Positions 22,201 through 40,479 of a stretch of DNA of 64,000 bases are shown piece by piece. Position 1 is the stretch's first letter. Each line of letters starts with the position of its first letter. The notes beneath the pieces were generated by a model. The model saw only the letters and a program-made list of their open reading frames with translations, was not told the DNA's origin and did not search any database. The translations under genes and the position numbers were made by a program. Source of the DNA: Terriglobia bacterium (GTDB lineage: Bacteria; Acidobacteriota; UBA6911); NCBI GenBank assembly GCA_963824985.1, contig CAWGRQ010000024.1:264822-328821 (forward strand), written 5' to 3'.

Positions 22201-23313
22201 CTGCTCGTTCAGGCCCAGATTGAAGGTGAAATCGCGGCCGGCAAGAGCAGCGCCGAACAGGAGGCCCTCGTCAAGGAGTGGCTGGCAAATGCCGCCCGGT
22301 TCCTGGGCGAAGGCAAGCAGGCCGAGGCGAAAAGGGCGCTGGACAACGTGGCAGGCCTCCGTCCGGACGCGCCCGAACTCAGACCCTTGCGCAACAAGCT
22401 GAAAGCGCTCACGGATGAAGCGGCCCGCGCCGAGAAAGGCAGAATCGATCTCGCCCAGAAACAGAAGCAAGTAGACGAGTGGAACAGTCAGGCCGGTGAG
22501 AAATTCAAGCAGGGAAGATATGGCGAAGCCTTGACAATCCTCGAACAGTGGCTGTCGGCAGCGCCGCAGAACGCGCAGGCGCAGGATTTGCAGCGCCAGG
22601 CATCCCTGGCGCAGCAGAGCCAGCGCGCCTATGACACTCACATGGCACAAAGGAACTATGACGAAGCCCTGAGGGCCGCGGCGCAACTGGAGAAAATCAA
22701 TCCTGCCGATCCTTCCGTTGCCGAGCTCCGCAAACGGGCGGAAGCACGCAAGGCGGCCGCCAAGGCGACCCTGTCCATTTACCGCCTGGGTGAACCGGCA
22801 AGCCTGTTTCTGGATGATGAACCGCTTGGAACCGCCGGCGAGTTGGAGGATCGCGTGGTCAGCGCCGGCCGGCATAAGGTCACGGTTCAAGTCAGCAGCG
22901 GCAAGCAGAGCACCTGGACCGCCGACCTGAGTGAAGGGCAGAAAGTGATCCTGGCCTATGATGCCGCCGCCCTGTCCTTGCGCCCCATGGTGGATGCGGA
23001 CCGTGAGTTGCTTTCCATGCGCAAAATCCGGGAAGAAGTCCACAGCTTCGAGGTGGAACACCGCCACGGGATTCTGGGCATCACCAAGTGCACCGGAATC
23101 CTGAAGATCAGCGGGCTCAGGGTCGAATTTCGGAGCCCGGATCATGCCCTGGATACGACTTTCGCCAACGTCAGGCTCAAGAACGCGAACAACGATCGGA
23201 TCGAACTGGAAACGGTCGACACCAAACAGTCATGGTCCTTTAAAATGCGGGATGCCGCCCAGGCAAAGGCAGTCAAGGAACTGTGGGACAGGTTGACCAA
23301 ACTCGGCAAATAG
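19240..23313 (+). CDS. Ser/Thr protein kinase with very long TPR/coiled-coil repeat region, single TM, periplasmic TPRs and C-terminal PEGA-like domain
   Basis: Start MIQKLGKYSIVEKLGEGAMGAVYKA at 19240; the 5' 200 nt of the track ORF look non-coding. HRDIKPGNIHF, DFGIAR. About 6 roughly 68-aa TPR-like repeats. TM AVIWASAGALLLIIAAVLAW. C-terminal TLSIYRLGEPASLFLDDEPLG...HKVTVQVSSG. Confidence 0.8.
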   Translation: MIQKLGKYSIVEKLGEGAMGAVYKAYDEILDRYVAIKTMAEDIKWDPELKLRFYREARSAAGLHHPNIVTIHDLGEEGKITYIVMEFLQGKDLKDIIREKPPLALEKKLAIIAQVCEGLNHAHLAGIIHRDIKPGNIHFSADGNVKIVDFGIARIPASDLTRSGVRLGTPIYMSPEQIRGEAYDERSDMFSTGIVFYELVTYVHPFRDKNIAKTLDNLLFQNHFPFAEQCPEAPPALWPIISTSLAKEPAKRFPSMAEMGRACRGLLVEMNAASRKMMSDLSAVAPRLLQAASRPGAPPRLGSLLQETQTALGMREPPDHATLKRLLDSLAEERVPVQQVEVSSVSREGRIPDASPLPPEAPPPAVVAPPPDPDDVRGRDLLHAGQALLQEERLDEALTILHQAVRLLGENQELAQALAEANRRTAERKQVQIAALVDRARLALASRQYTSAIEALNEVLQQEPGHAEAAELRHQAVAEAEAEREQQARQAEGEREKASGLKLLSEGKFPESITALRRAADLLGSNPEIERALREAGEKDKAEQQRRLVQAKLGEAVAQLRSKAFDQAETSARQVLEIFPGNVEAEDLLSRIDRARQQERRAAEISNLLAQSREQLDHQDFEAAQARTREIMALDPANADAQSLLQAIAEARETKRKQEAIEAAISEGQKAFLRDEVEEAEKFARLALDADPQHGKALELMRRITEIRDRKKREEIAAIVARGRQALVQGDLQEAASLGQQALQADPESIEARNFLASLRQAEESRRQEKLAAFLAGSRQALESGDFAEATRQAEALQHLDARNREAASLLKDINNARRKKEKADDKERKRLEKESRRLAQATADTAPETVDGAIPAETTPRRGLPKAVIWASAGALLLIIAAVLAWQLPRLRSNPPEPAAQLAAAQTQLDRGLFDEAIAAAREVLATSPNNAQAQTLIEVAQKQKIAKEVAMLLMEAQTLRSQGSLQESLDTLAKLISLDPANETALLVQAQIEGEIAAGKSSAEQEALVKEWLANAARFLGEGKQAEAKRALDNVAGLRPDAPELRPLRNKLKALTDEAARAEKGRIDLAQKQKQVDEWNSQAGEKFKQGRYGEALTILEQWLSAAPQNAQAQDLQRQASLAQQSQRAYDTHMAQRNYDEALRAAAQLEKINPADPSVAELRKRAEARKAAAKATLSIYRLGEPASLFLDDEPLGTAGELEDRVVSAGRHKVTVQVSSGKQSTWTADLSEGQKVILAYDAAALSLRPMVDADRELLSMRKIREEVHSFEVEHRHGILGITKCTGILKISGLRVEFRSPDHALDTTFANVRLKNANNDRIELETVDTKQSWSFKMRDAAQAKAVKELWDRLTKLGK

Positions 23314-23410
23314 TCCATGGCGCGCGGGAAAGAATTGGAAGATCGAAAGTGACTGCAGTATTCTCATGTGAGTCATGCAACACATCTGCCAGTCGGCGAG
23401 GGAGAGCACT

Positions 23411-23878
23411 ATGAAAGCAGCGCGTCACTTGCTTCTGTTGATTCCCCTGGGTCTGTCTTCTATGCTGTTGACCGGATGCCCCAAGCAGCCGGCCAAGATC
23501 AACATCGTTATGAACGCGGCCGCCAACATCAACCCGGATACGAGCGGTCAGGCCCTGTCGGTCGTGGTTCGCATCTATCAGCTCAAGGACAAGGGCCGCC
23601 TGGAATCCGCGGATTACAACGCCATCTGGAAGTCCGACAAGGAAACGCTCTCGGATGACCTGTTGGAAAGACAGGAGCGCATCGTGCAGCCGGGAACCCA
23701 GGAAATGATCGAGATCCAGACCAATCCGATGGCGAATTACCTCGCCGCGGTGGCTCTCTTCCGCAATCCTTCCGGAGACTCCTGGCGCAAGATCATCCCG
23801 ATCAACAAGGGCAAGACGCAGAAGATTGCTTTAGCCCTTCGCGAGCAGACCATCGAAATCACCTCGAGCGCCAGATAG
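23411..23878 (+). CDS. tssJ: Type VI secretion system lipoprotein TssJ (SciN/VasD family)
   Basis: Lipobox LLTGC. INIVMNAAANINPDTSGQALSVVVRIYQLKDKGRLESADYNAIW...LGVVALFRNPSGDSWRKIIPI closely follows the TssJ/SciN pattern (INPD..G.A.P.VVRLYQLK). GGGAGAG SD. Confidence 0.8.
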   Translation: MKAARHLLLLIPLGLSSMLLTGCPKQPAKINIVMNAAANINPDTSGQALSVVVRIYQLKDKGRLESADYNAIWKSDKETLSDDLLERQERIVQPGTQEMIEIQTNPMANYLAAVALFRNPSGDSWRKIIPINKGKTQKIALALREQTIEITSSAR

Positions 23879-23890
23879 GGACCACGGATC

Positions 23891-25243
23891 ATGACACCAC
23901 TGCAGAAAGTCCTGTGGAGCGAGGGGCTGTTCCTGACCCCTCACCACCTTCAACAATGGGATCGATATCACGAAGACGTGTTGAACTTCCGCATTCGCGC
24001 GCTGTCGACCTTCATGTGGGGCGCGGAAGAGCTGAAGTTCAATGAGGAGGCGCTCGAAAACGGCACCTTTGAAGTCCTGCGTTGCCGAGCCGTCCTGCCG
24101 GACGGCTCGGCGATCGACATCCCCGATGTCGATGCTCCGCCGCCGCTGCGCGACTTCACGGATTGCTTCGCCCCGACCAGCGACCGCATGGATGTCTACC
24201 TTGCCGTGCCGGTGGTGCGTTCCGGATCCGCTAATGTGGCGGGGACGGACAAGAAGGCCGCCTTCATGGCGCGCTACCTGCCGACGCAGGCTCATGTCCC
24301 GGATGAAAACACGGGCGAGAATGAGTTGCCAGTGACCTTCGCGGCCAAAAACATGCGCCTCCTGTTCGGGGAGGAGTCGCTCGACAATCATGCGGCTCTC
24401 AAGATCGCCGAGGTGCGCCGCACCCCGGAAGGCAAGACCGTTCTGGAGGAGGGGTACATCCCGCCGGCTTTGAGCCTCTCTGCGGCGCGCCCTTTAACCG
24501 ATATTGTCCGCCGCCTGCTCGAGATCCTGTCCGCCAAGAGCACAACGCTTGGAGAGCAGCGCCGGCAAAAGTCCGCCGGAGTCGCCGACTTTACCACTTC
24601 GGACGTGGCGACCTTCTGGCTGCTGCACACGGTGAACGCCTACATTCCGTCGATGATGCACTTCCACCACGTTCAGCGCGTACATCCCGAGCAGCTCTAC
24701 CTGACGATGGCGAGCCTGGCCGGCGAACTGATGACCTTCGTCACGGAAGGGCACCCGACCGAACTCCCCAAATACATCCACACCGATCTGACCAACACGT
24801 TCGCCCAGCTGGATCGCAAGCTGCGGGTCTTGCTCGAAACCGTCATCCCCACCCGCTGTGTGCCGATTCCCCTGGAGCGAACCAAGGAATCTCTCTACAT
24901 CGGCCGGATTCTGGACGAACGCCTGCCGGTCAGCGCCGAGTTTTACCTTGGTGTCTACGCCAAGCTTCCCGAAGCCCAGATATTGGAGAGGGTGCCGCGC
25001 AAGAGCAAGATCGCCTCGCTCGACACCATCAACTATCTGCTGGGCCAGGCACTCCCCGGCGTGCTGCTCCGCCCGGTGCCGGTGCCACCGGGTCCGATTC
25101 CCGTTCGAGTCGGCTTCAAGTATTTCCGGCTCGAAAAGCTGGGCACCTATTGGGACACCATCGCAGCGTCACGCAACATCTGTATATACTTCCCGGCGGA
25201 ATTTCCCGATCTCCGCCTCGAGCTGTTTGCCGTCAAAGATTGA
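23891..25243 (+). CDS. tssK: Type VI secretion system baseplate subunit TssK (ImpJ/VasE)
   Basis: 450 aa. N-terminal LWSEGLFLTPHHLQQWDRYHE matches the TssK consensus (LWSEG.FL.PQHFQQ.DRY). Lies between tssJ and tssL. Confidence 0.8.
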   Translation: MTPLQKVLWSEGLFLTPHHLQQWDRYHEDVLNFRIRALSTFMWGAEELKFNEEALENGTFEVLRCRAVLPDGSAIDIPDVDAPPPLRDFTDCFAPTSDRMDVYLAVPVVRSGSANVAGTDKKAAFMARYLPTQAHVPDENTGENELPVTFAAKNMRLLFGEESLDNHAALKIAEVRRTPEGKTVLEEGYIPPALSLSAARPLTDIVRRLLEILSAKSTTLGEQRRQKSAGVADFTTSDVATFWLLHTVNAYIPSMMHFHHVQRVHPEQLYLTMASLAGELMTFVTEGHPTELPKYIHTDLTNTFAQLDRKLRVLLETVIPTRCVPIPLERTKESLYIGRILDERLPVSAEFYLGVYAKLPEAQILERVPRKSKIASLDTINYLLGQALPGVLLRPVPVPPGPIPVRVGFKYFRLEKLGTYWDTIAASRNICIYFPAEFPDLRLELFAVKD

Positions 25244-25441
25244 CATCGGGGGGTGCGGCTTGTAGGCCGCGAAATTATTGACGTCTGGAACCTGTTGTGA
25301 CGAATCAGTTGACTGATCTGCCGGAGTTCCATGTGTCGGCCAGCGGGCTATCGCCGCTTCCCGGCCCGTGCGCCCCTCGCCGCAGGTCTGATTGGGTGTC
25401 ACAAAACTCTTCAGTCCCCTTCGGGGAAAAGGTATGAGGCC

Positions 25442-26158
25442 ATGACTCCGGCTCGCGATCCACACGAGGCGACTTCGTTTGAATCCTCCTCAGGCACCAG
25501 TCCCGGCCTGGTCGATTTGTGCACGGACGCCTTTCTGTTGATCTTTTTTATCCACCAGGGGAGGGACCCGGGCCAGCCCGACCAGCTGCGCAAGGAGATT
25601 GCGCTCCTGCTTCAGGATCTGGATAAACGGGGCAAAAGGCATGGGTACGGAGAGGAGGATCTCAAGGCGGCGCGGTATGCGTTATGTGCTCTGCTGGACG
25701 AGACCATCCTCAATTCCCGTTGGTCCTACAAGGACCAGTGGGCCGACCGCCCGCTCCAGCTCGAATATTTCGGCGAACACATGGCCGGGGAGAGGTTTTT
25801 CGATCTGCTCGACCGAGTGCGCGGGAAGGGCTCCCGCAAGGTCGATTTGCTCGAGGTTTTCTGCATGGCCCTGATTCTGGGGTTTCAGGGACGGTACAAG
25901 TTGCGCGGCAGCGATGAGCTGCCCAACCTGATCCGGGAACTGGTCGGAGAAATCAACGGACATCGGGGTTCCCCACGCGGCCTGTCTCCTCACGGACAGA
26001 TTCCGGAAGAGCCGGAAGAGGCTCCGGCCAGAGTGTTGCCCCGTTGGGTGTGGATCACGGCCCTGACTTCAGTGATCCTGGTGATTCTCGTGTTTGTCAT
26101 TTTCAAGCTTTGGCTCGGCTCGACTGCGGACCAGGCCATAGCGCGCATGGTGGTGTAA
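25442..26158 (+). CDS. tssL: Type VI secretion system membrane subunit TssL (DotU/ImpK family)
   Basis: DotU-family block YALCALLDETILNS...RKVDLLEVFCMALILGFQGRY. Single C-terminal TM VWITALTSVILVILVFVIF. Confidence 0.75.
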   Translation: MTPARDPHEATSFESSSGTSPGLVDLCTDAFLLIFFIHQGRDPGQPDQLRKEIALLLQDLDKRGKRHGYGEEDLKAARYALCALLDETILNSRWSYKDQWADRPLQLEYFGEHMAGERFFDLLDRVRGKGSRKVDLLEVFCMALILGFQGRYKLRGSDELPNLIRELVGEINGHRGSPRGLSPHGQIPEEPEEAPARVLPRWVWITALTSVILVILVFVIFKLWLGSTADQAIARMVV

Positions 26159-26261
26159 CCGACATCGGCAGGGCTCCTTTCCCGCCCGGACTTTTCCCGG
26201 ACGGGAATGATGTCGGATCGCACCTCTCCTTGAAACCGGAAGGCCGAAAAAGCGCTACCTT

Positions 26262-29200
26262 ATGAATCCCAATCCACAACAGACTCCGCCGCTACCGCCA
26301 CGGCCTGCTTCCGTGACGAAATTGTTCGCCATCGCCAGCATCTGCCTTGCGGTCGCCACCGCCGGCCTCTGGGCCGTCGACAATTTCCTGGGACGCGACA
26401 CGTTCAAAATCGTACTGATGATCCTGCTGGTCTTCCTGGGCGCCCTGATCATTTTCTGGCTGGTGCTGTGGCTGTTCCGCAAGCTCTTCTCCGCGGCCGC
26501 CGCCTCCCGTGAACGACGCCTGGAAGAACAGGCGGCGGCGCGGCGCCAGGGAGCCAGCCCTGAAGAACGGGCCGAGCTGGACGGATTACAGGAACAGTTG
26601 AACGTGGCGGTCCGTGTCCTCCGCGATTCCAAGTTGGCCAAGGGGAAGAAGGGGGATGAAGTCCTCTACACGCTCCCCTGGATCCTCATGCTCGGTCCGG
26701 ATGAATCGGGCAAGACCAGTGCTTTGCGGGAGTGCGGCGTCGATTTTCCTTACACCACCGCCGAGGGGCGGAAGCCGACCCGTGGCCCGGCCCCGGGCTG
26801 CGATTACTGGTTTTCACGCGGCGCTGTCATGCTTGACCTGGCGGGGCGCATCGGTGCCGGTGAGGAAGGGTCCGAGACGTTTCAGGGATTCCTCGACCAG
26901 CTCAAGCGCGCGCGCAAAGAGCGGCCCTTGAACGGCGTGGTCGTGACCATAAGCATCGCGGACCTGCTGCATCAACCCGCGGATGAGGTCGAACGGCTGG
27001 CCAATCGTTTGCGGCACCGCTTTGACGAAATGATCAAGCGTCTCGGCATCCGCTTTCCCATTTATGTTTTGTTCACCAAGTGCGACCAGGTTGAAGGCTT
27101 CCGGGAGTTTTTCGGCAATCTGCGCAGCCGCGACCGCTCCCAGGTGTGGGGCGCGACCATATCCCACGCTCAGCGCAAGCGGCTTTCCGCCGCCCAGATC
27201 TTTTCCCAGGAATATGACCGGCTGGTGGCGGAGCTCTCCACCTACCGGCTCCCCTTGCTGGCCAGCGAGAAGAATCCGCAGAACCAACCCTTGATTTACA
27301 CGTTCCCCACCCGGATGGCGGCATTGCGCGAGCGCTTGACCAGTTTCATGAGTGTCCTCCTGCAGCCGACCCCCTATTCCGAGCGGCCCATGTTCCGCGG
27401 TTTTTACATGGCCAGCGCGGCCGGCGGGCCGCCGGCGGAGGCTCCGGTCCGGGAAGTGCCGCAGCAGTGGGAACCCGGCCGTCGATTCGAAGCGGAAGCC
27501 GATCAGCCCAAGACGGCGGCCCGCAGTTACTTCCTCGAGACGCTGTTTCCTCAGATCTTTTTCGCCGACCGCTCGCTGGCAACCGCGTCGGTGGACACGA
27601 GGTTGCGCCGCCGGCTGTGGCTCGACATCGCGTTCATCGGAACCCTGGCCCTGTGTCTGACGCTGCTCGTCGGCATGATCTTCTCATTCATGGAAAACCG
27701 GGCGCTGATCGAACATGTGCGCCTGGCTTCCCTGCACCTGGCCGATGCGGGCTGGGATGGCAGGCGGACCACCGACCTTATGGCCATGGAGGACCTGCAC
27801 CAGAAGGTCGAGGAACTCGACCGTTACCAGACCGAAGGTCCGCGCTGGGCATTGGGCTGGGGCCTTTACAGCGGCAATGCCGTTAATCCCGCCGCCCGGC
27901 GGATCTACTTCCGGAGATTGCGGGATACCTTCGTCGCCCCGACCGCTGAAGTCCTGAGGCGCAAGCTCAACGGCTTCGCATCGGGCGCGGACAGTGCCGC
28001 GGCGTACGACGATTTCTACACGACCCTGAAAGCCTACCTGATGATGACGGAGCCGCAACGCGCGGAAGAATCCTTCCTGAATAATGCGCTGGGCGCCCCC
28101 TGGAAAGGGATCGCGGCACGGGATGCGGAAGAGGTCGCGCTGAAGCAGCTCCGCTTTTATGCCCGGCAACTCCCCAAGAACCAACCCGAACTCCAGTTGA
28201 CTCAGGACGCCGATCTCGTCGCCCGAGCCCGCCGCGCGCTCAGCCAGTTCCCGGCCCTGGTCCGTATGTACACGCGTCTCAAGAACGAGGGGAATGCCAA
28301 ACTCCCCCCTTATACGCTGGCCATCGCCACCGGGGGTAAAAGCCTCGATTACATGAATTCGAGCTTTGATGTGCCGGGAGTATTTACGGAAGCCGGCTGG
28401 CGCACCTACTTCAAGAACGCGGTCGCGCAGGCCAGCCAGGAAGTCATCAAGGATGACTGGGTGCTGGGTCCAACTTATGCCTATGCGCCCTCCGGGGGGA
28501 TTTCCGACGCCGATTACGCCAATAAAATCCTCGACATGTACTACGCGGAATACTCCGACGTCTGGTCCCGTTTCCTGGAAGGAGTTTCCGTGCGCTCGCT
28601 CGCCGACCTGACCGAGGCGCGCGGCGCGCTGGACTCCTTCTCACAACAGGATTCAGCCTTGTCACGCCTCCTGATGAACGTGGGCGCGCAAACGATGCTG
28701 CGACGCAATCCCGAGCAGGGCGGAAGCGTCACCGACATGGTTTCCGGCGCCCTGGCAACGCTGGGCTTGTCGACGAGAGTCAACCGGGAAGATCTGGTGA
28801 CGGCGATCGCCGACCAGTTCGCTCCCCTGCATGACATGATCACGTCTCCCGACGGCAAATCCCCTGCGCTGTCGGCTCAGTATGTCGAAGTGATCGGCCG
28901 GATTCACTCCAAGCTGGAAGCCCTCTTCGGCGCCGGCACTCAATGGGAACAGGTGAAGGCCTACGTGGGGATGATCGCGACCAATATTTCCGGAGACGAG
29001 TTCCACGACGGCTTCCGGGTTACCTCGCGTGTGACCCAGATGTGCCGGACCAGGAGCACCCAGCCGATCGGATCCCTGCTGGAACAGCCGCTGCGTCAGT
29101 CGTGGGCCGCGATTCTGCGCGATGTCGGATACCGCCTCGATGGGCTCTGGAAAACCCGCATTGCAGAGACCTATCGCCGCGACGTGGAAAGCCGTTTTCC

Positions 29201-29873
29201 CTTCAACCCAAACGGGCAGGACCTGCCGCTTTCGATGCTGGCTCAATATCTCAAACCCGGGGATGGCAGCCTCTGGGCTTTCTATGAAGCCGAGCTGAAA
29301 ATGTTCCTGACCCCGTCGGAGAATCAGTGGGCCGCGTCAACATTGATCGGCGCCCAGGTCGATTTCGCGCCCGGATTTCTCGAGTTTCTGGGACGGGCCA
29401 ATGCCGTGCGTCAGGCCTTGTATGGATCGGGAGGAGCGGACCCGACCATAACCTTCGACCTCACTCCGGAACCGACTCCCGGAATGACGGAAAGCCTGCT
29501 CGATATCGACGGCCAGAAACTCCTGTATCGCAATGAGCGCGCGCTGCCGCAGCCCTTCACCTGGCCGGGTAAATCCGGGTCTCCCCAGGCGAAAATCTCG
29601 ATTTCCATCACCAGCTCGGGCGAGCGCCCCGGCATTCCCACCATCGATGGGGAGTGGGCCTTTTTCCGGCTGCTGGGCCGCGCCAGCGTCGCGCCGCAGT
29701 CGCAGACCGCCTATGGCGTGACGTGGTCGCTGCCAGGCGCCGATGGCCGGAAATTCGATGTCCGTTACCGGCTGCAGGCGAGAAATGTGCAGAATCCGTT
29801 CCTGCCCCAATTCTTCAGCCGGGTCCGGTGCCCGGAGAAGGTGACCCAGTTGCCGTCTTTGTCCCGCTATTAG
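26262..29873 (+). CDS. tssM: Type VI secretion system membrane subunit TssM (IcmF family)
   Basis: 1203 aa. Three N-terminal TM segments. Walker A LGPDESGKTS after LYTLPWILM. Long IcmF-related periplasmic region. Canonical size and position after tssL. Confidence 0.85.
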   Translation: MNPNPQQTPPLPPRPASVTKLFAIASICLAVATAGLWAVDNFLGRDTFKIVLMILLVFLGALIIFWLVLWLFRKLFSAAAASRERRLEEQAAARRQGASPEERAELDGLQEQLNVAVRVLRDSKLAKGKKGDEVLYTLPWILMLGPDESGKTSALRECGVDFPYTTAEGRKPTRGPAPGCDYWFSRGAVMLDLAGRIGAGEEGSETFQGFLDQLKRARKERPLNGVVVTISIADLLHQPADEVERLANRLRHRFDEMIKRLGIRFPIYVLFTKCDQVEGFREFFGNLRSRDRSQVWGATISHAQRKRLSAAQIFSQEYDRLVAELSTYRLPLLASEKNPQNQPLIYTFPTRMAALRERLTSFMSVLLQPTPYSERPMFRGFYMASAAGGPPAEAPVREVPQQWEPGRRFEAEADQPKTAARSYFLETLFPQIFFADRSLATASVDTRLRRRLWLDIAFIGTLALCLTLLVGMIFSFMENRALIEHVRLASLHLADAGWDGRRTTDLMAMEDLHQKVEELDRYQTEGPRWALGWGLYSGNAVNPAARRIYFRRLRDTFVAPTAEVLRRKLNGFASGADSAAAYDDFYTTLKAYLMMTEPQRAEESFLNNALGAPWKGIAARDAEEVALKQLRFYARQLPKNQPELQLTQDADLVARARRALSQFPALVRMYTRLKNEGNAKLPPYTLAIATGGKSLDYMNSSFDVPGVFTEAGWRTYFKNAVAQASQEVIKDDWVLGPTYAYAPSGGISDADYANKILDMYYAEYSDVWSRFLEGVSVRSLADLTEARGALDSFSQQDSALSRLLMNVGAQTMLRRNPEQGGSVTDMVSGALATLGLSTRVNREDLVTAIADQFAPLHDMITSPDGKSPALSAQYVEVIGRIHSKLEALFGAGTQWEQVKAYVGMIATNISGDEFHDGFRVTSRVTQMCRTRSTQPIGSLLEQPLRQSWAAILRDVGYRLDGLWKTRIAETYRRDVESRFPFNPNGQDLPLSMLAQYLKPGDGSLWAFYEAELKMFLTPSENQWAASTLIGAQVDFAPGFLEFLGRANAVRQALYGSGGADPTITFDLTPEPTPGMTESLLDIDGQKLLYRNERALPQPFTWPGKSGSPQAKISISITSSGERPGIPTIDGEWAFFRLLGRASVAPQSQTAYGVTWSLPGADGRKFDVRYRLQARNVQNPFLPQFFSRVRCPEKVTQLPSLSRY

Positions 29874-30034
29874 CCTTCTCGATTCATGAAGGGAGGATTG
29901 CGCCCACCGGCTCCCGCTCCTGCTCGGTCAGGCAAAGCGATTGAATGATGGATGGGCGAAATAAACTGCCTGACTGCAGCCGCCTTCCCCGGCACGGCAA
30001 CCTGCATGCAGTCCTCTCCCCTGTTTTGGAGTGC

Positions 30035-30088
30035 GTAAATCCGTTTCTGCCTCAGTTCTTCAGCCGGGTCCGCTGCCCGGAAAAGAGA
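30035..30088 (+). other. Relic of a second tssM 3' end (48-bp paralogous patch)
   Basis: aatccgtttctgcctcagttcttcagccgggtccgctgcccggaaaag matches 29795-29842 (codons NPFLPQFFSRVRCPEK of tssM). There are 5 differences, all at synonymous third positions. Confidence 0.6.
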
Positions 30089-30096
30089 GCATGGCG

Positions 30097-30147
30097 CCTG
30101 GTTATACTGTCCACACACCACTATGGTATTGGGGCAGTATAACCAGG
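30097..30147. repeat. IR-bounded small repeat element, copy 1 (CCTGGTTATACTGTCC...GGGCAGTATAACCAGG)
   Basis: Terminal inverted repeats of 16 nt (1 mismatch). Same termini as elements at 41752-41793 and 59663-59742. Confidence 0.6.
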
Positions 30148-30242
30148 TAACCGTTCACACGCCGGAGAGTTCCTGCCTCTTCCCGCGCCCGATCCGGCAG
30201 CCGTTATGCGGGTTTTCCGCCGGCTGCTGCGTGACCGTCTAC

Positions 30243-30291
30243 GCCGGGCCAAACTCCTCTCCGAGAGCTTCATGCACAATCTTCTCTCGTG
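30243..30291 (+). repeat. 49-bp dispersed repeat, copy A (inverted partner at 63614-63662)
   Basis: ccgggccaaactcctctccgagagcttcatgcacaatcttctctcgtgg matches the reverse complement of 63614-63662 at 45 of 49 positions. Confidence 0.6.
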
Positions 30292-30459
30292 GATTGAAAC
30301 AGCGACGCTTCGCCGGTGAGGGGCAGTCCCGGGCTGATGAAGGACAGCACCTGGTTTTTACATGATTCCAGATGATTTCAACCCCACCTGGTGCTATTCT
30401 GCGCACTCCAAGAAAAGGTGATTCACAATCTATATTTCACGTGCCTCCTCGGAGACGGT

Positions 30460-33400
30460 ATGAAAATGTGTCAACGCGGGTCGCGGTGGGGCGGCTGGAA
30501 GCGGGTCGTCCGTATCGCATATGTTTCGGTTCTCTCGCTCATCCCATTCTCAATGTTGGCGTGGCAGGAAACCACGCGGCCGAGCCTGCCGCCTGGCGCG
30601 GCTGTGTCGCTGCCGTTCAGCGGACCGGGCTGGCAGGAAAAGGTTCTGACGTATGAGGGCTACGTCAGCTCCGCCGAAAGAGCTCGCCGATGCCGTGTTG
30701 GCGCCGCGGGAAGCCAACATCACACTCAGCAACCCGAGTCCCGACAAAAAGTGGTTCCTCGATGAGATCGGCGACGGTCCCACGCCGATGTCGATCTTCG
30801 GGCGACCCTTCGATGAGTTGGGCGGCGTGTTCATCGACTTCAAGGCCAACCGGCTGCGCTCGATGACGCTGCGCAATACGATAGGCATCCAGATTATCTT
30901 GGCCGCCGATGGATCAAAAAAGGTCATCGCAACGCCGCCGAATACCCGGGTGACCGGCGCGCGCTGGACGCCGGACGGCACGGGTGTCGCCTACATGTCG
31001 CTCGGCGACGACTCGACGCACGTTTGGATCACCGACATCGCGACCAACAAAGCGCGCCAGGTGACGAAGGCGTCGCTCGTGACGACCTCCGTGACGAATT
31101 TCGCTTTCGTGAACGGCGGCAAACAGATCGTCGCGACATTTGCGCCCGATGGCCGTAAGCCGCGGCCGGTGCCGCCCCCGGTGCCGCCTCGGGCCCGAGG
31201 TTCGCACGGCGCTCACCGGTGAGAAGGAGCGCGTGCGGACATTCCCGAGTCTGATGTCCACGCCCTACGACTTCCAACTGCTCGAGTGGCACGCGACGAC
31301 TCAGATCGCGATCGTCGACGTCGCCACCGGCGTCGCGACCAGGTTCGGCACGCCCGGCATGATCACGGCCGTCGACATGTCCCCGGACGGGAAATTCGCG
31401 TCGTGTGACGCGCATGACGAAGCCGTTCGCATACACGGTGCCCGCCAACAGTTTCGGATCGATCGAAGAATTGTGGGACAGCACGGGAAAGGCGCTCGCG
31501 AAGATCAATGAGCGGCCGATCAATCTTGGGGCGGTGCCCGACAACCTGGATCCGCTCGCGCCGCAGCCTGATCCCGCGGCGCAGGCGCCGGGAGGCGGCC
31601 GGGGCAACGCCGCCGCCGACAACGGCAAACGCGAGCTCGCGTGGCGGACCGACGGCCAGGGCATGAACTACCTGCAGCTTGAACCACTCCCACCTGGCGT
31701 CCGAAACGCGGCCGGGCGGGGAGGTCGCAACGCCGCTGCGCGGGACGGGGCCGGAACCGGAGGACGCGGCACAACCGCTCAGACCGGCAACCGCGGCGTA
31801 ACGGGCGCGCGCACAGCAACCCGCCGCGCCGCCGCGCAAAGACCGGCTCATGCAGTGGATGCCGCCGTTCAGCGACACCAGCATGAAGCTGCTCTACGAG
31901 AACCCGACGCGCATGACCGGCGTGCGCTTCTCGCCTGATGGACAGATTATTTTCTTCTACCGAGAACAACGCCACGGTGGCCGTGTACTCTGAGCGACAC
32001 CGGCGCAGAAGTACACGATCGTGCGCGGCGGCGGTGGAGCTCGTGGCGGCAACGCCGCTCCTGCTGATCCCGCGGTGACTCCGCCGGCCGATCCGACAGC
32101 CGCGCCACAGGGCCGAGGCGGGGCCGCTCCTAATCCGGGAGGCACGCTCGTCGGCGTCCGTGGCGCTGGCGCCGGCGGCGGTGGTGGCACCGCGGCGGTG
32201 GCGGCGGCGGCCGTGGCGGTGGCGGCGGCGCTGCGGGCCCGGTGCTGCTCTCGGACAGACGGCACGAGCGTGTTTCTGCAGGGCTCGACCGGCGGTGGCC
32301 GCGGAACGAACAATGCGCCGGCAACGCAATGCGCCGGCGAATCCGCCCGCGCGCCAATGCACCCGCGGCCAGTACGCCCGCGGCCGTCGCGTGGGTCGAC
32401 AAGGTCAATATCAAGACCGGCGAGAAAACCCGCGTCTTCCAGGGCGAGAACACGGACTTGGTCGAGCGCATCTCGATGATTCTCGATCCCGAAACCAAGC
32501 GATTCATCCTCACGAAGGAGAATGCAAAGACGCCGCCGCAGCAATTCCTGTACGAGAATGGCACGCGCAAGCAGCTCACGAACAACGAGGATCTGTTCCC
32601 GGACCTCACGAGGATGGTCGTGCAGCGTTTCACCGTGAAGCGGGCGGATGGGTTCATCTTCCGGACGACGGTCAGTTTGCCGAGCGACTACAAGCCCGGC
32701 AAGCGGCTGCCGGCGTTCTTCTGGTTCTATCCGGCGGAGTTCACTTCGCAGGAAGCTTACAACAGCGGACGCGGCGGTGACGCCGGCGCTACCGGCGGCA
32801 CCACGTTCCCGAATTTCGGGACGCTCTCGAAACAGTTCCTCGTCCGGTTGGGTTCGCGGTCGTCGAAAATGACGCACCCATCGTCGGTCCGCAGGGCCAG
32901 ATGAACAACAACTACGTGAACGATCTGCGGAATGACCTGTCGGCGACGATCGACGAGCTGGACAAGCGCGGACTGATCGACCGCGAGAAACTGGCGATTG
33001 GCGGGCACAGCTATGGCGCGTTCTCGACGGTGAATGCGATGGTCAACACGCCATTCTTCAAGGCCGGCATCGCCGGCGACGGCGCGTACAACCGGACTCT
33101 GACGCCGAATGGCTTCCAGAGCGAGCGCCGGGATCTGTGGGAAGCGCCGAACGTCTACCTCGACATGTCGCCGTTCCTCAGAGCCAACCAACTCACTGGC
33201 GCGTTGTTGATGTATCACGGCATGCACGATCAGAACGTCGGTACAGATCCGATCAACTCGCTGCGGCTGTTCCACGCGTTGAACGGCCTGGGCAAGATCA
33301 CGGCGCTCTACCGTTATCCGTTCGAGGATCACGGCCCGGCGGCGCGTGAGACCCTGCTCGACCTTTGGTCACGCTGGGCCGCGTGGCTCGACAAGTACGT

Positions 33401-33539
33401 TAAAAATCCGGAGCCGGAAGACCAAGCCCAAACCCACCTCAGGGCGCGGCGGCGGCGGACGGTAAACGGTTTTGGGCGGATCCAACTTCCGATCCGCCGC
33501 CTCCTCATGGGCGGGATCTCCACGATCCCGCCCATTTAA
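30460..33539 (+). pseudogene. S9-family (prolyl oligopeptidase/DPP-type) serine peptidase with TolB-like beta-propeller, disrupted by at least 4 frameshifts
   Basis: Pieces lie in frames of ORFs 30391, 30653, 31140, 31405, 32242 and 32901. N-terminal signal peptide, WD-like propeller (RWTPDGTGVAYMS), catalytic GGHSYGAF (GxSxG), LLMYHGMHDQNVG. Paralog of the intact gene at 49914-52097 and shares its Gly/Arg-rich insert. One shift is a G-run deletion at about 32840. Confidence 0.6.
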
Positions 33540-33551
33540 GCGAAAAGGGGG

Positions 33552-33593
33552 CAAAGCCTGGAAAGCCTGGACAAAGCCTGGAAATCCTGGACA
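33552..33593. repeat. Left terminus of IS/REPtron-like element: tandem (A)AAGCCTGGA units ending in 16-bp IR CCTGGAAATCCTGGAC (33577-33592)
   Basis: Tandem roughly 10-bp units caaagcctgg / aaagcctgga / aaatcctgga. The perfect reverse complement gtccaggatttccagg sits at 35091-35106. Confidence 0.6.
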
Positions 33594-33665
33594 CCCATTT
33601 TTTGTAATTTTTTCTTGGCACTTTCCATGAGTTCACCAGTTAGATAGTATTGAAAGAGGTGAACC

Positions 33666-34816
33666 ATGGCTTTGCCGCGCAGCAAATACGTCCAGGAAGG
33701 ACAAGAAGGGGTGTATCACTGCTTCAGCCGGTGCGTCCGCCGGGCTTTCCTGTACGGATTCGATCCGCTCACACGCCGGGACTTCTCCCACCGCAAAGCA
33801 TGGCTGGTAGACAGGTTGCGGCTATCTCGCGGCCATCTTCGCCATCGAAGTCTGTGCCTACGCCATTATGGAGAATCACTATCACACTATTCTGCGTACT
33901 CGCCCCGATATCGTCGCCCTGTGGTCCGATCGGGAAGTGGCAATCCGCTGGCTGACACTCTTCCCCCGACATCGCAACCTGAGCGGCACCCCAATTCCGC
34001 CTGCCGAGAAAGAAATCTGCGCTCTGGCGGATTGTCCGGAACGTATCGCAGAGCTGCGCCGACGCTTGTCGAGCCTGAGTTGGTTCATGGGCCGGCTGAA
34101 CGAATTCATCGCTCGGGCGGCAAACAAAGAGGATCGGGTCAAGGGCCGGTTCTGGGAATCGCGGTTCAAATGCCAGGCGCTGCTCGACGAAGCGGCCATC
34201 GCCGCATGCATGGTCTATGTGGACCTGAATCCGATCCGGGCCGGTACTGGCTGCAACTCCGGAGGAAAGCGACTTCACCAGCATCCAGGAACGGATCCGT
34301 GCCTGGCAGAAAGAGACGATGACGACAGCCTCCGCCTCCAGCGAGACGGCCCAAGACATGCAGTCTGGCTCGGTCAGTAAAGTTACGCAATACCGCGAAA
34401 TACGGCCGAAATTTCGAACCTCATTCCCGACCCCATTTCCGACTGCGGCGAATTCCCTTGATGCTACAGCCCATCCCGCCCGCTGGCTTTGTCCCATTCA
34501 ATCAGACTCCGAACGGCGCGGGATTCTGCAGATGACTGCAGCCGAGTATTTCGATCTGGTGGACAAGTCGGGACGGATGATGCGGTCGGACAAACGGGGA
34601 GCCATCGATGCCGATCTGGCGCCCATCCTGCTGCGGATCGGCGCCAATCCGGACGCGTGGCTTGATACCGTCACCCGCTTCGGTTCCAGGTTCCGTCTCG
34701 CTGCCGGGCTGCTTGCCAATCTGCGCAATTTTGCAGATCAGCTCGGCAGGCGCTGGCTCAAAGGCGCAGCAGCGGCTCGAGCCGCCTTCGCGTCATCGCC
34801 GCCGCAATTGGCCTGA
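33666..34816 (+). pseudogene. COG1943 / IS200-IS605-like Y1 (HUH) transposase-like gene (RAYT-like), two frameshifts
   Basis: HuH-type motif VCAYAIMENHYHTIL, then FWESRFKCQALLDEAAIAACMVYVDLNPIRAG. Reading shifts near 33830 and 34245 across the frames of ORFs 33666, 33868 and 34319. Low-GC promoter and gaaagaggtg SD upstream. Confidence 0.55.
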
Positions 34817-35090
34817 CCTCTTACGCGCCCAGCAGCCAATCCTCTGCAGACCCGATGCTATCTTCTGACCGCATCGATCCCTTCCAGCAGCATTTGGTAT
34901 TTTCCTACCCGTGACCGTCCTATTGCCCTGATTCCTGCCGACTTGTTTCACCCAACGGTCAGATTCGTCTCCTCCATCCCAGATCGGCGCTTCCCCACGG
35001 AAACTCAGATTCGGATTGGATACAAATGATGAATGCTGGGTGTTTAAGATTGTTGATTTATTTGAGATTTGCAAATTACGAATGGTGGGT

Positions 35091-35133
35091 GTCCAGGATT
35101 TCCAGGATTTTTCCAGGATTTTTCTTCCAGGAG
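35091..35133. repeat. Right terminus of IS/REPtron-like element: gtccaggatttccagg (35091-35106) plus tandem ttccaggattttt units
   Basis: Perfect 16-bp inverted partner of 33577-33592. The tandem copies are a mirror image of the left end. Confidence 0.6.
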
Positions 35134-35240
35134 GCTGCCCAGGATCGCCGGTCCCGGTCCGGAATGCCGATATCCATTTTAGCCAAGAGGTAAGCGCCGT
35201 CAGTCCCAATGCCCCGTTTTGGAATGAAGGGCATGCACTG

Positions 35241-36731
35241 TTACAGGATTTCGATCTGACGTTCCAATGTGCAGATACGATTGCTGATCGTGTCGGTGAT
35301 GCGCACCGCGATCCGGTATTTTCCCGGCGCCAGGCTGGAGAGCGGGATGGCTTTGCTGATGGCGATGCTGTGGCCCTCCGGGAACTGATGCTCCAATTCC
35401 GGGCCGACCGGGAACCTGGTGCCGTCCGGAGCTTCCAGCAGATAGGAAGTCTCCACATTCGGTTTGCCCGTCGTGGTGTCCAGATCGAGATCGTACACTT
35501 CCAGATAAAGTCCGAGGCTGTATTTGCGCGGATAGGCGGCCTTCAGGTTGGGAACCACCTTCAGAGGTCCAAGAACGAACTCTTCGCCACGGCTTTTTGG
35601 GGGGGCCAGCTGGATGACATCCGCGCAGATCAACGAACTAGTATTGAGCGCTCCCTCTACATAGGGTGGAATCCAAAAACTCGACTCCTGGGTGCCCATC
35701 CTTCCGGAATTCACATTCTTGACCAGCAGAACCAGCTTGTACCGCCCGGCCGGCAACGGAATGACCGTCTGGTGATACGTGCGTTGCTTCAAGAGATCCG
35801 GCAGGGTGAAATTCCCGGATGACGATTTGAAGCTGTCGTCGAGCTGATACACTATCTCCCCGCTGAGATTCGAAATAGCGGCGTATATCTGGATCTCCGA
35901 TTCGAAGAAACCATCTTTTCCCAAATACATGAGCTGGTCGTTGGGAACGGTTACGGTGAGGGGAACCGCGTACAGATCCGGGGTCATCCGGATAAAGGCA
36001 GTGCTCGATTCGAAGGAGAGAGTGCTATAGGTGACCTTTACGCGGACATCCTCTCTTAACTGCGGAAATTGGAGCACCGGCGGGGCCTGCAGCTTGGACC
36101 ACACGGTGAGGCGTTCGAATGGCATCTCCTTGGCACGGGGGGTCACGCGCTGCAGCGGCTGCTCGCCGCGAGCCCAGTAAAATACGTCCTTCTTATTGGC
36201 GTCCGTTTCGAGGACGTAGAGACCCGTTCCGGAGCGATCGACAAACTCGATCGTGATGTCCTGCCCGATACCCGGGATAGAATCGTATTCCCAGGTCTCA
36301 AAGGCATAGGTGGTGATGGTATCGCCGCCCATGTTGGCCGGCTTCGTGTAGCGGCCTCCCATGGGGCGCGCGTCGCGGCGGTTCGGCGGGCCGTAAAGGA
36401 TATAGATGCGCCCGCGATCACTTTTCCATCCCGAGATTCCGGCATGAAAGTACTCATTGGCGTAAGCCACGCGCCGCGAGACCTCTTCACGGAATGCGCC
36501 CGGCCGACCCATTCCTGCGTCTCGCCGTCTCCAGAAATCTTCCATGAAACGCTCCCGTTCCTCTTCGGTCGTGAGGCGCTGGTACACCTGGCGCTCTTGC
36601 TCGGTGATGAAGTACTGAACCTCAGTCTGAAGCCACTCCCTCGCCTTTTCGGCCGGGGCCGGCTTCTGCTGTGCGGCTGCAGAGAGAAGGAGTGAGACGA
36701 GGATGATCGCGGAAGCGGTGAATCGGAAAAA
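35241..36731 (-). CDS. GWxTD-domain secreted protein (Acidobacteria-type)
   Basis: Signal peptide MFFRFTASAIILVSLLLSAAAQQ. GWxTD motif GISGWKSDRGRIYILYGPP. Roughly 500 aa. Confidence 0.7.
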   Translation of the reverse strand, partial: FFRFTASAIILVSLLLSAAAQQKPAPAEKAREWLQTEVQYFITEQERQVYQRLTTEEERERFMEDFWRRRDAGMGRPGAFREEVSRRVAYANEYFHAGISGWKSDRGRIYILYGPPNRRDARPMGGRYTKPANMGGDTITTYAFETWEYDSIPGIGQDITIEFVDRSGTGLYVLETDANKKDVFYWARGEQPLQRVTPRAKEMPFERLTVWSKLQAPPVLQFPQLREDVRVKVTYSTLSFESSTAFIRMTPDLYAVPLTVTVPNDQLMYLGKDGFFESEIQIYAAISNLSGEIVYQLDDSFKSSSGNFTLPDLLKQRTYHQTVIPLPAGRYKLVLLVKNVNSGRMGTQESSFWIPPYVEGALNTSSLICADVIQLAPPKSRGEEFVLGPLKVVPNLKAAYPRKYSLGLYLEVYDLDLDTTTGKPNVETSYLLEAPDGTRFPVGPELEHQFPEGHSIAISKAIPLSSLAPGKYRIAVRITDTISNRICTLERQIEIL

Positions 36732-37067
36732 CATCGAAAATCTCTGCCCTGACCCGTGCTTCGGAGCACTCAATCTTGCCGGTACCGCTCTCGAGGACCG
36801 ACACATGACATCAGAGCCTGCTCCGAAAATAGGCTCTGCACTCACCGACAATCGGGGTCGGCATCGGAATCGGGGTCGCTATCGATATCGAAACCGGGAC
36901 CGACCCCGATTCCGATAGCGATCCCGACGGCATCTCCCCTGCTGCCAGTCTTTTTCATGCGTCACCGGGTGCGCCACGGCGCATGAGGAGCTGCTGCTCC
37001 AAGGAAAGTGTGGCGCGGGGGCCTGTTCCCCCGCGCCACTGCGTCTGAGCATAGTACAGCAATTCCG

Positions 37068-40000
37068 CTAGAAGATGAAGCGGATACCCAGCTGGGCCTG
37101 GAATGGAGACGAGGATTCGGTACCGTAAGTCCCACTCGCCGGTCCCAGGGTGGACATGTACTGGGTCGAAAGGACGTTTCCTGAGAAGTTCCGCCCGAAG
37201 TTAGTCCGGTTTGTGATGTTGAACGTTTCGAAGTAGAACCCCAGGCTCATCCCCTCACGGACCTTCGCCAAGCTGATGAATTTTGTGACGCGCAGATCCA
37301 TCACGAAAAACCGGCCCGACTGCCAGTTGCCGTCGAGGTCGTACCCGCCGTGCTGCCCGTTCCTGGTCACACCCTGCGGGCACGTCCGGCCATTGGGAGC
37401 AGTTGCTCCGGGAATGCAGAGATCATTGTTAGTCCCATCCTTGTTGGCATCGGCGCCGGCCGTCAGCGTATACGGCCTGGATGAGGCCAACTGCAGAATC
37501 GGGGCAACCTGGAATCCGTAAGGAATGTCAAACACACCGGACCAGACGAAGCGATGCCGCTCGTCACGGACGGTGGCCACATAGTCGTCCGGGGTCGAGG
37601 TAGTTCGTCTGGTTGTACGGGCGGTGCCGCCGAATTCGCCGGAACCACCTGCCATACCCGCGCGCCCGCGAAAGCGTGTACGAACTCTGGAAGGTGAGGT
37701 GGTGCGACAGGCGCTTGCGGACGCCTATGTTGAGTCCGTCGTAGCTCGATCGGTTGACCGATGCCGCGTTGTTACGTCGGCGAACCGGTTCGATGGCATG
37801 CCGCTGCCGCGAGAGCACGCTCGACCGGATGCGCGGGTTCGATCCATCCGCCTTCACGATCCTGTAGTTGAGCGCGGATCGTGCGGTTTTCGTGGGTGTT
37901 GAGCGACATGGGTGTAATCCGCCTTCCAGCACGAAGTCCTTGGCGAACTCCTTCGTGAATCCGATGTTGAACTGCTGGGCAATGGGCTCACATAATCGGG
38001 ATCAATCAGGCGGCCGTTGAGCCGGCCGGGAAGCTTGGTTCAGCCGGTGTCGGGATGGAGCGGGAGAGGGGTGGGTTGACCAACCCGAAAGTAGGCATGT
38101 CGCCCTTCCCGATGCGGCTGTTAGCCAAAGTCACGACATTTCCAAAGATGGTCGGGAAGCTCTGCTGCATCGCAAACAGGTTGATGTTGTTGAACAACTG
38201 ATCGTAGTACATTCCGTAGCCACCGCGGATGACCGTCTTGCCCTCCCCCGTCGGATCGAAAGCAAAGCCGATCCGTGGAGAGAAGTTGTTCAAGTCGTCA
38301 GTCGGCAGCCTTCCCTTGAAGCCGTTGGTTAGCGGATGGTTGAGCTTCTGTGATGATCGGGTATGTGCGGCCGTTATTGCAGAATCTTCCGGCCCCGACC
38401 AGGCCGAGATCGACGTCGTAGCGCACTCCCATGTTGATCGTCAGCTTTCGGCTGACTCTCCAGTCATCCTGGAAATAGCCGGCTGACGAAGTTGATCCAG
38501 TTCGGATACGTGTACCGGGAGTCACAAGCGGATGGCTCTCCGTAATGCCCGACACAATGCCCGGGGTTGTGAAGCCCTGGGGATATTTTGTCTTGTCGTT
38601 CAGGATGATCGGACGGGCTGTCGAAGAAGGAGACCAGGGGAACCGGATTGTAACCGAAGAACCCGCCCAGCCACGGCTCAGCGACCCAATCGACTCCGAA
38701 TCTGAACCCATGGCTTCCCCGATTCCAGCTTGACGGAGTCCTTGATCTGCCACTTTCTTCTGGAACGTTTGCTGCGGTACGTTGCCCGTTTGTCCCGTAG
38801 CCCACTGAGGCGAACGCTCACCGTCACCGGCGAGTAATTATCGGTGTCGATCAGGTTATTCCAGTAGGAGGATCCCCACACGAACTGGTTGACGATTTTG
38901 GGGCCCAAAGTTGAACTCAGCACCGCCGACATCAGGTAATTTCGGTTTGTGTTGTAGTTGATGCTGGTCAGGTCCGTTGGCGCCTGGTCGTTTTCGTTGC
39001 GATCCGAACTGTTGTTCCAGGTCAAGTAGGCGTTGTTATTGGTGTTGATCATCCAATCTGCCGTGCCGTCCACATGGTGCGTTTGTAGGGCTGGGGCAGT
39101 TGCTCGGCCGGACTCGGCGTGGCGCCATAGATGCTGATCTTGGCGTCCGCGAGCAGCCTGCAGCTCGGCGACGGTGTTCGGAGGGAATGATGGTGAATGT
39201 GCTTTCCTGCATGCGCTCAATGATGAAGAAGAAGAAGGCTTTCTCCTTCTTGATCGGACCGCCAATGGAACCGCCATACTGCCAGCGCCGGAAGGGCGGG
39301 CTTATCCTTGCTGCTGCTTCTTGGACCAATAGTCGTTGGCATTGAAGATCTTGTCGCGGTTGAATGTGAACCAGCTACCATGGAAGTCGTTTGATCCGGA
39401 CTTGGTCACGATCGAAAGCAGGCCGCCCTGAGAGCGGCCGTCGGCGGCGGAGAACCGCTGGGTTTTCAGCGCGAATTCCTGCACTCCATCCAGCGAGACG
39501 TTCTGCACCCAGCCGCCGACTGAGTTGTCTTTGTTTTCGATGCCGTCCACGGTGGTTTCCATGTTGCGGCCACCGGCGCCGCCTACCGAAATCGCGCCAA
39601 TGCGGGTCTTGGTCGGGTCCCAGGAAGTCACCGGCCGCGCGCCCGGAAGCAACATTGCCAGAGCGGAAAAATTCCGGGAATTGAGCGGCAAATTGACGAC
39701 TTCGCGGCTTTCAATGACGCCGCCGACGTCTGTCTTAGTAGTCTCGACGAGCGGTGCGATTTCAGAGACGATCACGGTCGTCTGAGTCCCCGCCGGCTGG
39801 AGCACCACGTTGACATCGGTCGTCCGGCCCACGTTTACGATCACGCTCTTTACTTCATAGGCGCCAAAGCCGGCCAGCTCGGCTTTGAAGGAATAGGTCC
39901 CGGGTGTCAGGCCCGGAAAGCGGAATGACCCACTGCCTTCCGAAACCACGACCGACTCGAACCCTGTCGCTGTGTTCTTGATGGTTATGGTCACACCGGG

Positions 40001-40129
40001 AACAACCGCCGCCGATTTATCGGTAACCGTTCCCTGAATCTGCCCTTTTTCGCCGCCCTGACTGAACAGCATCGGGATCGCGATCAGAAAGGCGAGCAAA
40101 ACGAAAACTACAAAACGAGGATTGAACAT
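37068..40129 (-). pseudogene. TonB-dependent receptor with N-terminal carboxypeptidase-regulatory-like domain, shattered into at least 7 frame segments
   Basis: N-terminus (39302-40129): signal peptide, CarbopepD_reg-like GTVTDKSAAVVPGVTITIKNTATGFE, plug (NLPLNSRNFSALAMLLPG). C-terminus (37068-37655) ends QAQLGIRFIF (terminal aromatic beta-strand). Internal pieces lie in ORFs 37564, 38006, 38298, 38464, 38678 and 39036. Confidence 0.6.
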
Positions 40130-40479
40130 TCAAAACCCCCTGAGAACAAATGTGCAATTCGTTGAATGCACCAGAGGCTGGGATTGGAGCGCGCCCAGCC
40201 TCCACAGCGGCCTCTGCAGCTGCAAAAGCAACCTGAGACTTGAAAAAAGCCCACGACGTTTGCTCTTTTCCCGCAGGGAACCATCCTGAAACCGGATGTT
40301 GTGTCGAACCCGCGCTCAGGGATGGCCGCGAGCGTAAACGACATTCCGATGCCGGAATACGACGGAAATCCGCATGCGCGTCGTTCTGCCTGGTGCGCCA
40401 TACACCAAGGCCCGCGACTCGGGTGATTGCCTCCGTCGGATCCTCTGATCCAAGTAATTTGGTGTTATTTCAGATTGTG

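Follow-up and report, generated by a model that had tools for sequence, protein, structure and literature searches.

A 48-nt segment at positions 30038-30085 of the window (the whole 64,000-nt stretch of DNA analysed here) derives, to judge from its similarity and its codons, from the 3' end of a tssM gene, and is located shortly downstream of an intact tssM. The segment is a genuine molecular fossil and represents an ordinary kind of scar of a past rearrangement. According to the best explanation, which is a probable one, this relic is the non-functional remainder of another tssM 3' end and was left behind by illegitimate recombination. The features around the 3' end of tssM are listed below.

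26262-29873 (+): intact tssM, 1203 aa, last gene of its module (Pfam IcmF-related_N, IcmF-related, IcmF_helical and IcmF_C)
29793-29840 (+): copy 1 of the repeat, tssM codons 1178-1193, the last conserved TssM motif (repeat search, alignment of relatives)
29841-29896 (+): native variable tail (VTQLPSLSRY) and stop codon of tssM, then a 3' flank of 23 nt, common to the window and its closest relative, contig L015
29897-30037 (no strand): 141-nt spacer from the native flank to the relic (no match in the similarity searches)
29945-30142 (+): 65-codon ORF running through the relic, with its stop inside a hairpin; judged non-coding (no Pfam match, no homologue)
30038-30085 (+): relic, a 48-nt piece (16 codons) from the 3' end of a second tssM, with five synonymous differences from copy 1 (similarity, codon counts)

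The tssM gene and its terminal motif

The gene tssM closes a module with the order PP2C, kinase-TPR, tssJ, tssK, tssL and tssM (Pfam and protein-level synteny), the T6SS genes of which are all intact over 11 kb. Acidobacteriota MAGs (L001-L004) and metagenome contigs (L005-L014) contain TssM orthologues with identities of 57-89%. The 3' end of tssM is present on the contigs of 12 relatives, and in 12 of the 12 the protein ends with the motif NPFxxxFFxxxxCPE[K/R/T], followed by a short tail that is variable in length and sequence. In EAEC TssM (4Y7M/6HS7), the counterpart of the 16-residue motif by alignment is the last conserved stretch of the periplasmic C-terminal domain, at about residues 1088-1109 of 1129, which precedes a variable C-terminal extension. 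Compared with the structures of that domain (PDB 4Y7M, 4Y7L/4Y7O, 6HS7 and 6IXH), the relic represents the final conserved segment only, without the domain context. Exact-protein look-ups of TssM, TssK, TssL and three small ORFs near the relic returned nothing on record, and a scan of viral contigs for the terminal motif yielded no matches.

The genes tssJKLM stand alone with genes for Ser/Thr kinases, a PP2C phosphatase and FHA proteins (positions 17983-29873 and 45107-49879 of the window; also in L001, L005 and L006). No sheath, Hcp, VgrG, ClpV or baseplate genes were found near tssJKLM in the window or in the close clade L001, L005 and L006; sheath or sheath-like genes and vgrG genes directly follow tssM only in the relatives at 65-67% identity (L002 and L003). 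The interval that separates the PP2C gene from a kinase gene, on the upstream side of the T6SS module, contains the Rfam Acido-Lenti-1 RNA twice in convergent orientation, at 17764-17809 (+) and 17830-17874 (-), with scores of 49.7 and 49.0 bits (gathering score 37).

The repeat pair

An exhaustive ungapped register search and a repeat finder (family D4) paired 29793-29840 with 30038-30085 as an ungapped direct repeat, in which 43 of 48 nucleotides are identical (blastn-short E = 5e-10 in a search within the window). The copies are spaced 245 nt apart, no indels separate the relic from copy 1, and the repeat finder detected no further copy in the window. Read in the tssM frame, both copies encode NPFLPQFFSRVRCPEK. 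The five codon differences (copy 1/relic: TTC/TTT, CCC/CCT, CAA/CAG, CGG/CGC and GAG/GAA) are all synonymous and at third positions, the base changes being C/T, C/T, A/G, G/C and G/A. The earlier note had reported one and the same peptide for both patches, with five third-position synonymous differences, which was confirmed by the repeat search and the codon comparison; the repeat itself is real, but the coordinates given for it (29795-29842 and 30035-30082) were off by 2-3 nt.

The relic is the sole additional TssJ/K/L/M-like match in the window (tblastn E = 2.7e-5). Its peptide is identical to TssM of the window at 16 of 16 residues, to L015 at 15 of 16 (NPFQPQ...), to L014 at 14 of 16 and to L005 at 13 of 16; the residues 'PQ' are common to the window gene, the relic and L015 only. 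On both sides, the flanks of the two 48-nt copies showed no similarity above shuffled controls, so that the 48 nt are bounded by true breakpoints and not by differential decay. The relic does not represent a full-length tssM: only 16 codons are homologous, the flanks are unrelated, and the 65-codon ORF has no Pfam match.

Divergence under coding constraint

According to the Nei-Gojobori method, copy 1 and the relic differ at 5 of 10.8 synonymous sites and at 0 of 37.2 non-synonymous sites. Of the 144 possible single-base changes in the patch, 33 are synonymous; the probability that all five differences are synonymous is 0.0006 if neither copy was constrained and 0.007 if the genic copy alone was constrained. 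With L015 as the outgroup, copy 1 agrees with L015 at five of the five sites, so that all five changes are placed on the branch of the relic. (Polarising by distant relatives failed because the synonymous sites are saturated, and L015 is the sole usable outgroup.) Third positions account for 14 of the 30 G/C sites and for 2 of the 18 A/T sites in the patch, and the probability that five neutral changes all fall on third positions is (14/30)^4 x (2/18) = 0.005 (own calculation), a figure that is conditioned on the mutation types and on the G+C content per codon position. With this synonymous-only pattern (p about 0.005-0.007), neutral decay of a local duplicate is rejected, and the patch is taken to have diverged while it was read as tssM.

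The pS between the relic and copy 1 is 0.46 (from 16 codons, with a very wide confidence interval on the divergence), compared with 0.22 between the window and L015 and 0.52-0.55 between the window and L008/L014. This intermediate value points to the tssM of a close relative or to a young paralogue as the source, and not to a fresh copy of the present gene. Judged by its substitutions, the patch was still part of a functional tssM, in a close relative or as a paralogue, when it diverged, and the truncation came later. The same sequence of events, divergence under coding constraint preceding truncation, had already been suggested from the first reading of the DNA and is borne out here, with p about 0.0006-0.007 under the neutral models.

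The DNA between tssM and the hairpin

The spacer at 29897-30037 showed no similarity to tssM, to the 3' end of the FHA gene, to the relatives or to the rest of the window. Near the join at 30037/30038 only a displaced 'GTGC' was seen (near 30028-30037), which is not significant, and there is no clear microhomology. Searches for RNA families (Rfam), promoters and terminators in the region 29.7-30.6 kb returned nothing meaningful.

The reading frame of the relic is open into the hairpin, with a TAA stop in the right arm of the hairpin, and the last 18 codons of the resulting 65-codon ORF are the repeat element. The ORF has no Pfam match, no homologue was found for it, and no exact record exists. 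Its GC3 outside the relic is 0.56, versus 0.69-0.78 in the five window genes measured. A Shine-Dalgarno-like sequence is absent before its start, and no signal peptide was evident by eye. With neither homologues nor a gene-like codon composition, the ORF is judged to be non-coding and not a small protein gene. A minus-strand ORF at 29870-30121 was rejected as a constrained gene; the differences fall on its first codon positions (frame reading), and it is not on record.

Hairpin repeat elements and other repeats

Three copies of a hairpin element were found in the window.

30097-30147 (no strand): hairpin copy 1, REP-like, with a predicted 17-bp stem that includes near-perfect terminal inverted repeats of 16 nt (terminus search, RNA fold)
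41752-41793 (no strand): hairpin copy 2 (terminus search, copy comparison)
59663-59742 (no strand): hairpin copy 3 (terminus search, copy comparison)

The termini of the hairpin yielded 6 matches in the window versus 0.18 expected, and the RNA fold of 30030-30160 gave z = -5.0. Copy 1 is 51 nt in length. The family has conserved inverted termini of 16-18 nt (CCTGGTTATACTGTCC...), the loops differ in length and sequence, and all three copies are intergenic, each a short distance 3' of an ORF. None of the 16 related loci (L001-L016) has the family; in viral contigs the terminus gave five isolated 16-mer matches, no more than expected by chance (rough estimate). As a short, imperfect, intergenic palindrome that is repeated and has a stable predicted hairpin, the element appears to be REP/REPIN-like.

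The relic ends at 30085, whereas the similarity among the hairpin copies starts at 30093 and the element itself at 30097. The earlier note had described the relic as adjoining the first inverted-repeat element (30097-30147); the element was confirmed, and the 3' edge of the relic is 11 nt away from it. About 0.2% of the window positions are as close as this (11 nt or less) to any of the six boundaries of the elements (own calculation), and the adjacency of relic and hairpin is non-random. Placed in this way, the pair looks like the 3' end of a gene together with its downstream hairpin. As TssM tails are naturally variable and the frame is open into the hairpin, the old tssM may have ended within the element; alternatively, the hairpin may be the end point of a deletion.

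Further repeats and patches in the window include a short segment close to the hairpin.

30244-30292 (-): 49-nt patch with sharp edges, matching 63623-63671 in reverse complement at 92% identity (repeat finder)

This patch is about 160 nt from the tssM relic and appears to be non-coding at both sites. A 44-nt inverted repeat with 95% complementarity (17653-17696 and 36952-36995) contains the perfect palindrome ATGCGCCATGGCGCAT, and both of its copies are intergenic. Inverted repeats of 49 nt (86%) at 33562-33610 and 35073-35121 flank a 1.5-kb segment of lower G+C content with two ORFs without Pfam matches (33666-34322 and 34319-34816); the segment 33562-35121 may be a small mobile element. A 100-nt piece (51038-51137) of the intact S9 peptidase gene at 49914-52343 recurs with 99% identity at 55706-55805, inside the unrelated ORF 54967-55965, with a protein-level similarity that spans 41 residues; it is another short gene-fragment patch, besides the tssM relic, in the same genome.

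Synteny break and adjoining mosaic

The DNA downstream of tssM is divided as follows.

29897-47314 (no strand): lineage-specific mosaic of about 17.4 kb between the convergent tssM and FHA genes (synteny, Pfam, GC3 frame plot)
47315-48058 (-): FHA-domain gene, the counterpart of which abuts or overlaps the tssM 3' end in L005
48164-49879 (+): FHA-SLT gene (two FHA domains, one SLT domain), conserved as the neighbour of the module on its right (Pfam, synteny)

The ancestral order, based on protein-level synteny in L001, L005, L010, L011, L012 and L004, is tssM, the convergent FHA gene and then the FHA-SLT gene. Between tssM and the FHA gene there is nothing in L005 (the 3' ends overlap), about 0.4-0.6 kb in L010, L011, L012 and L004, 5.3 kb with methionine-biosynthesis (met) genes in L001, and about 17.4 kb in the window. 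The gene orders compared show this gap to behave as a recurrent insertion hot spot. The relic sits at the left edge of the mosaic, 141 nt into a stretch that none of the relatives has.

The mosaic contains an S9-peptidase-like region with about seven reading-frame switches (30391-33539, +), a CarboxypepD_reg/OMP beta-barrel gene that is broken up into four or more ORFs (37068-40129, -) and, according to Pfam, a VapBC pair, a kinase and a GH127 gene. Neither an integrase nor a transposase was found among the Pfam-scanned ORFs of 29.9-47.3 kb, nor was a tRNA. Apart from the relic, the 64-kb window contains no T6SS gene fragment, and it has no sheath, hcp, vgrG or clpV gene.

Among the close relatives, L001 and L005 have readable DNA downstream, and their module ends with tssM; in L005, L010, L011, L012 and L004, tssM converges on the FHA gene. 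Each related MAG yielded one tssM locus, and a second tssM copy was not found in the 15 related loci containing tssM sequence. The suggestion that hcp, vgrG or tssA once followed tssM and were deleted in the same event is not supported by the synteny check, in which tssM of the close relatives is terminal. The relic shares the derived 'PQ' with the resident gene; the loss or split of the downstream sheath and vgrG genes would therefore predate the source of the relic. The source had also been called a paralogous T6SS gene, of which the tssM 3' origin holds, whereas paralogy is one option only: an orthologous allele of another strain that recombination left behind fits equally well or better.

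A protein that is 92% identical to the TssM C-terminus (P0001) is encoded on L015 (JGI contig Ga0316620_10166244, 1794 nt). Positions 811-1725 of L015 match 28982-29896 of the window with an identity of 91.7% and without gaps, and no significant similarity extends beyond 29896; positions 1-703 match 39837-40540 with 96%. The two matched parts are separated by 107 nt of filler, the homology of which to the window spacer is not significant. The tssM of L015 is 5'-truncated and consists of the last 297 codons or so, in an intact frame and with a dN/dS of about 0.14 versus the window gene. The contig fuses this tssM fragment to the upstream region of the OMP gene, which in the window is 10 kb downstream of tssM. 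Two Logan contigs have the window-like arrangement at the junction point of L015, so that both arrangements exist in nature. The 3' region of tssM is evidently prone to rearrangement in this lineage.

At about 40545-40719 (-), the mosaic encodes what reads by eye as the N-terminal part of an AbiEii-type nucleotidyltransferase toxin (FKGGTVL...RFSEDLDL). The gene fragment is cut at 40541, the point at which L015 and the window diverge, which makes this another rearrangement breakpoint. A further contig, L016, is 94.9% identical to the OMP region of the window, with 17 indels of one or two bases, which are confined to the coding part of the OMP gene and spare the adjoining 1.4 kb; their cause is either decay of a pseudogene or noise in the consensus of a multi-copy gene family.

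Comparison with known systems

Homology-facilitated illegitimate recombination (HFIR) or allelic replacement leaves gene remnants in naturally recombining bacteria, as seen in work on Acinetobacter and Streptococcus. The locus resembles such remnants in that a complete gene with a foreign flank is followed by an abruptly truncated, displaced homologue at a synteny break, and in that the window gene and the relic differ in the manner of diverged functional alleles, at synonymous sites only. It differs from them in having neither an identifiable anchor or microhomology nor a recovered donor or recipient configuration, and in comprising only 16 codons. The relic also resembles pseudogene fragments at island borders.

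Integrative elements duplicate gene 3' ends as attL and attR (classical integration at tRNA/tmRNA genes or at the 3' ends of protein genes). The likeness consists of a directly repeated gene 3' end, an intact gene and adjoining lineage-specific DNA, whereas the pair is 245 nt apart and does not flank the 17.4-kb region, and the native tail with 23 nt of flank follows copy 1, not copy 2. Duplication of an att site was rejected on the 245-nt spacing, the lack of a third copy in the window, the lack of an integrase in the scanned ORFs and the lack of a tRNA. A tandem duplication of 245 nt was rejected as well, since the sequences after copy 1 and copy 2 are unrelated, and so was a long target-site duplication, since the copies are not identical and no transposon is located between them.

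Palindromic repeats of the REP/REPIN type act as end points of rearrangements. The element at 30097-30147 is similar to them in being a short hairpin, conserved at its inverted termini but variable in its loop, that is repeated intergenically 3' of ORFs; it differs in that there are three copies in 64 kb, no RAYT-like transposase is known for the element, and related loci lack it. The near-identical second copy shortly downstream of the repeat at the gene's 3' end recalls the template and variable repeats of a DGR. All differences of the relic are synonymous and would therefore not diversify the protein, unlike in a DGR; this candidate was rejected, with adenine in the downstream copy at only one of the five differences and no RT domain found nearby.

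Alternative explanations

The relic might instead be the remnant of a tandem or neighbouring paralogous T6SS cluster, the rest of which was deleted together with the genes after tssM. This is unlikely, and the likelihood that it retains overlaps with that of the best explanation. Synonymous-only divergence and a hairpin at the truncation point would fit equally, and the distant relatives L002 and L003 have sheath and vgrG genes after tssM; however, the 64 kb contain no other T6SS fragment, tssM of the close clade is terminal and convergent on the FHA gene, the related MAGs yielded a single tssM locus each, and the lineage-specific residues of the relic match the resident gene, which argues for a very recent relative and not for an old paralogue. 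A somewhat lower probability is assigned to a local templated patch, in which a template switch during repair or replication copied 48 nt of the resident tssM downstream and the copy has since decayed neutrally. Neutral decay should have reached codon positions 1 and 2, and the observed restriction to synonymous third-position changes has a probability of about 0.005-0.007; the relic has also accumulated no indels. In favour of such a patch are the other short, sharp-edged patches in the window (30244-30292/63623-63671 and the 100-nt, 99% identical S9 piece at 55706-55805) and the fact that three of the five changes are transitions from G/C to A/T in the direction of the relic, which is the usual mutational bias. 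A possible variant takes an older resident allele as the template of the patch and has recombination replace the gene afterwards; it merges with the best explanation.

An assembly artefact, through a misjoin of the tssM alleles of two strains at about 90% identity or through fixation of a minority structural variant in the consensus, is about as improbable as the templated patch. Unique, non-homologous sequence on both sides of the relic (141 nt upstream) leaves no overlap for a join by the assembler, the T6SS genes are intact over their 11 kb, and L015 is a partial tssM copy in independent data. On the other hand, the lineage belongs to uncultured Acidobacteriota known only from metagenomes, the 17 one- or two-base indels of the nearby OMP gene versus an independent contig point to consensus noise, and the contigs of relatives (L008 and L014) break near the tssM 3' end. 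It is very improbable that the relic is a functional element, such as a small protein mimicking the TssM motif, an RNA decoy formed by the sense copy or a means of swapping the tail VTQLPSLSRY for RAWRLVILSTHHYGIGAV by recombination. In favour of a function, present-day selection on the ORF would likewise restrict the differences to synonymous sites, the frame is open over 29945-30142, and TssM tails after CPE[KR] are naturally variable. Against a function are the lack of a homologue, exact record or Pfam match for the 65 codons, the GC3 of 0.56 outside the relic versus 0.69-0.78 in genes, the missing Shine-Dalgarno-like sequence, the 18 terminal codons taken up by the repeat element, the absence of a signal peptide evident by eye, the occurrence of a second copy in 0 of the 15 related tssM loci, and the lack of a detected Rfam family or promoter. 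Fainter still is the chance that the 48-nt pair acts as a low-frequency switch deleting 245 nt (giving a tail that ends in the hairpin), or that the ORF protein hinders assembly of the membrane complex.

Proposed history and significance

Under the preferred reading, a fossil of another tssM 3' end left by illegitimate recombination, the order of events and the recombination mechanism would be as follows. The source would have been an allele formerly at the locus, or one brought in with foreign DNA from a closely related strain. The source gene and the present tssM would have diverged while both were working genes, and for this reason only synonymous sites would differ. An illegitimate (non-homologous) join would have cut the source tssM at codon 1178 and put the complete tssM with 164 nt of 3' flank ahead of the leftover; the route may have been HFIR or other end-joining at a rearrangement hot spot. 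On the 3' side of the fossil, the REP-like hairpin may have truncated the variable tail of the old gene, or it may have been the end point of a deletion.

No genome with an intact progenitor (a tssM ending ...CPEK beside the hairpin and an S9-like gene) was found. The 164-nt 3' flank of tssM was also searched for a remnant of the FHA gene as a test of a donor with the ancestral order; none was found, which counts against this history, as such a donor would have left one. Assembly noise is possible, given the many 1-2 nt indels in the nearby multi-copy gene versus L016.

The relic reveals no new mechanism or system. It is of use in reconstructing the evolution of T6SS loci and as a caution against annotating the 65-codon ORF, and it marks a rearrangement or replacement of the 3' boundary of the T6SS membrane-complex module in a lineage of uncultured Acidobacteriota.
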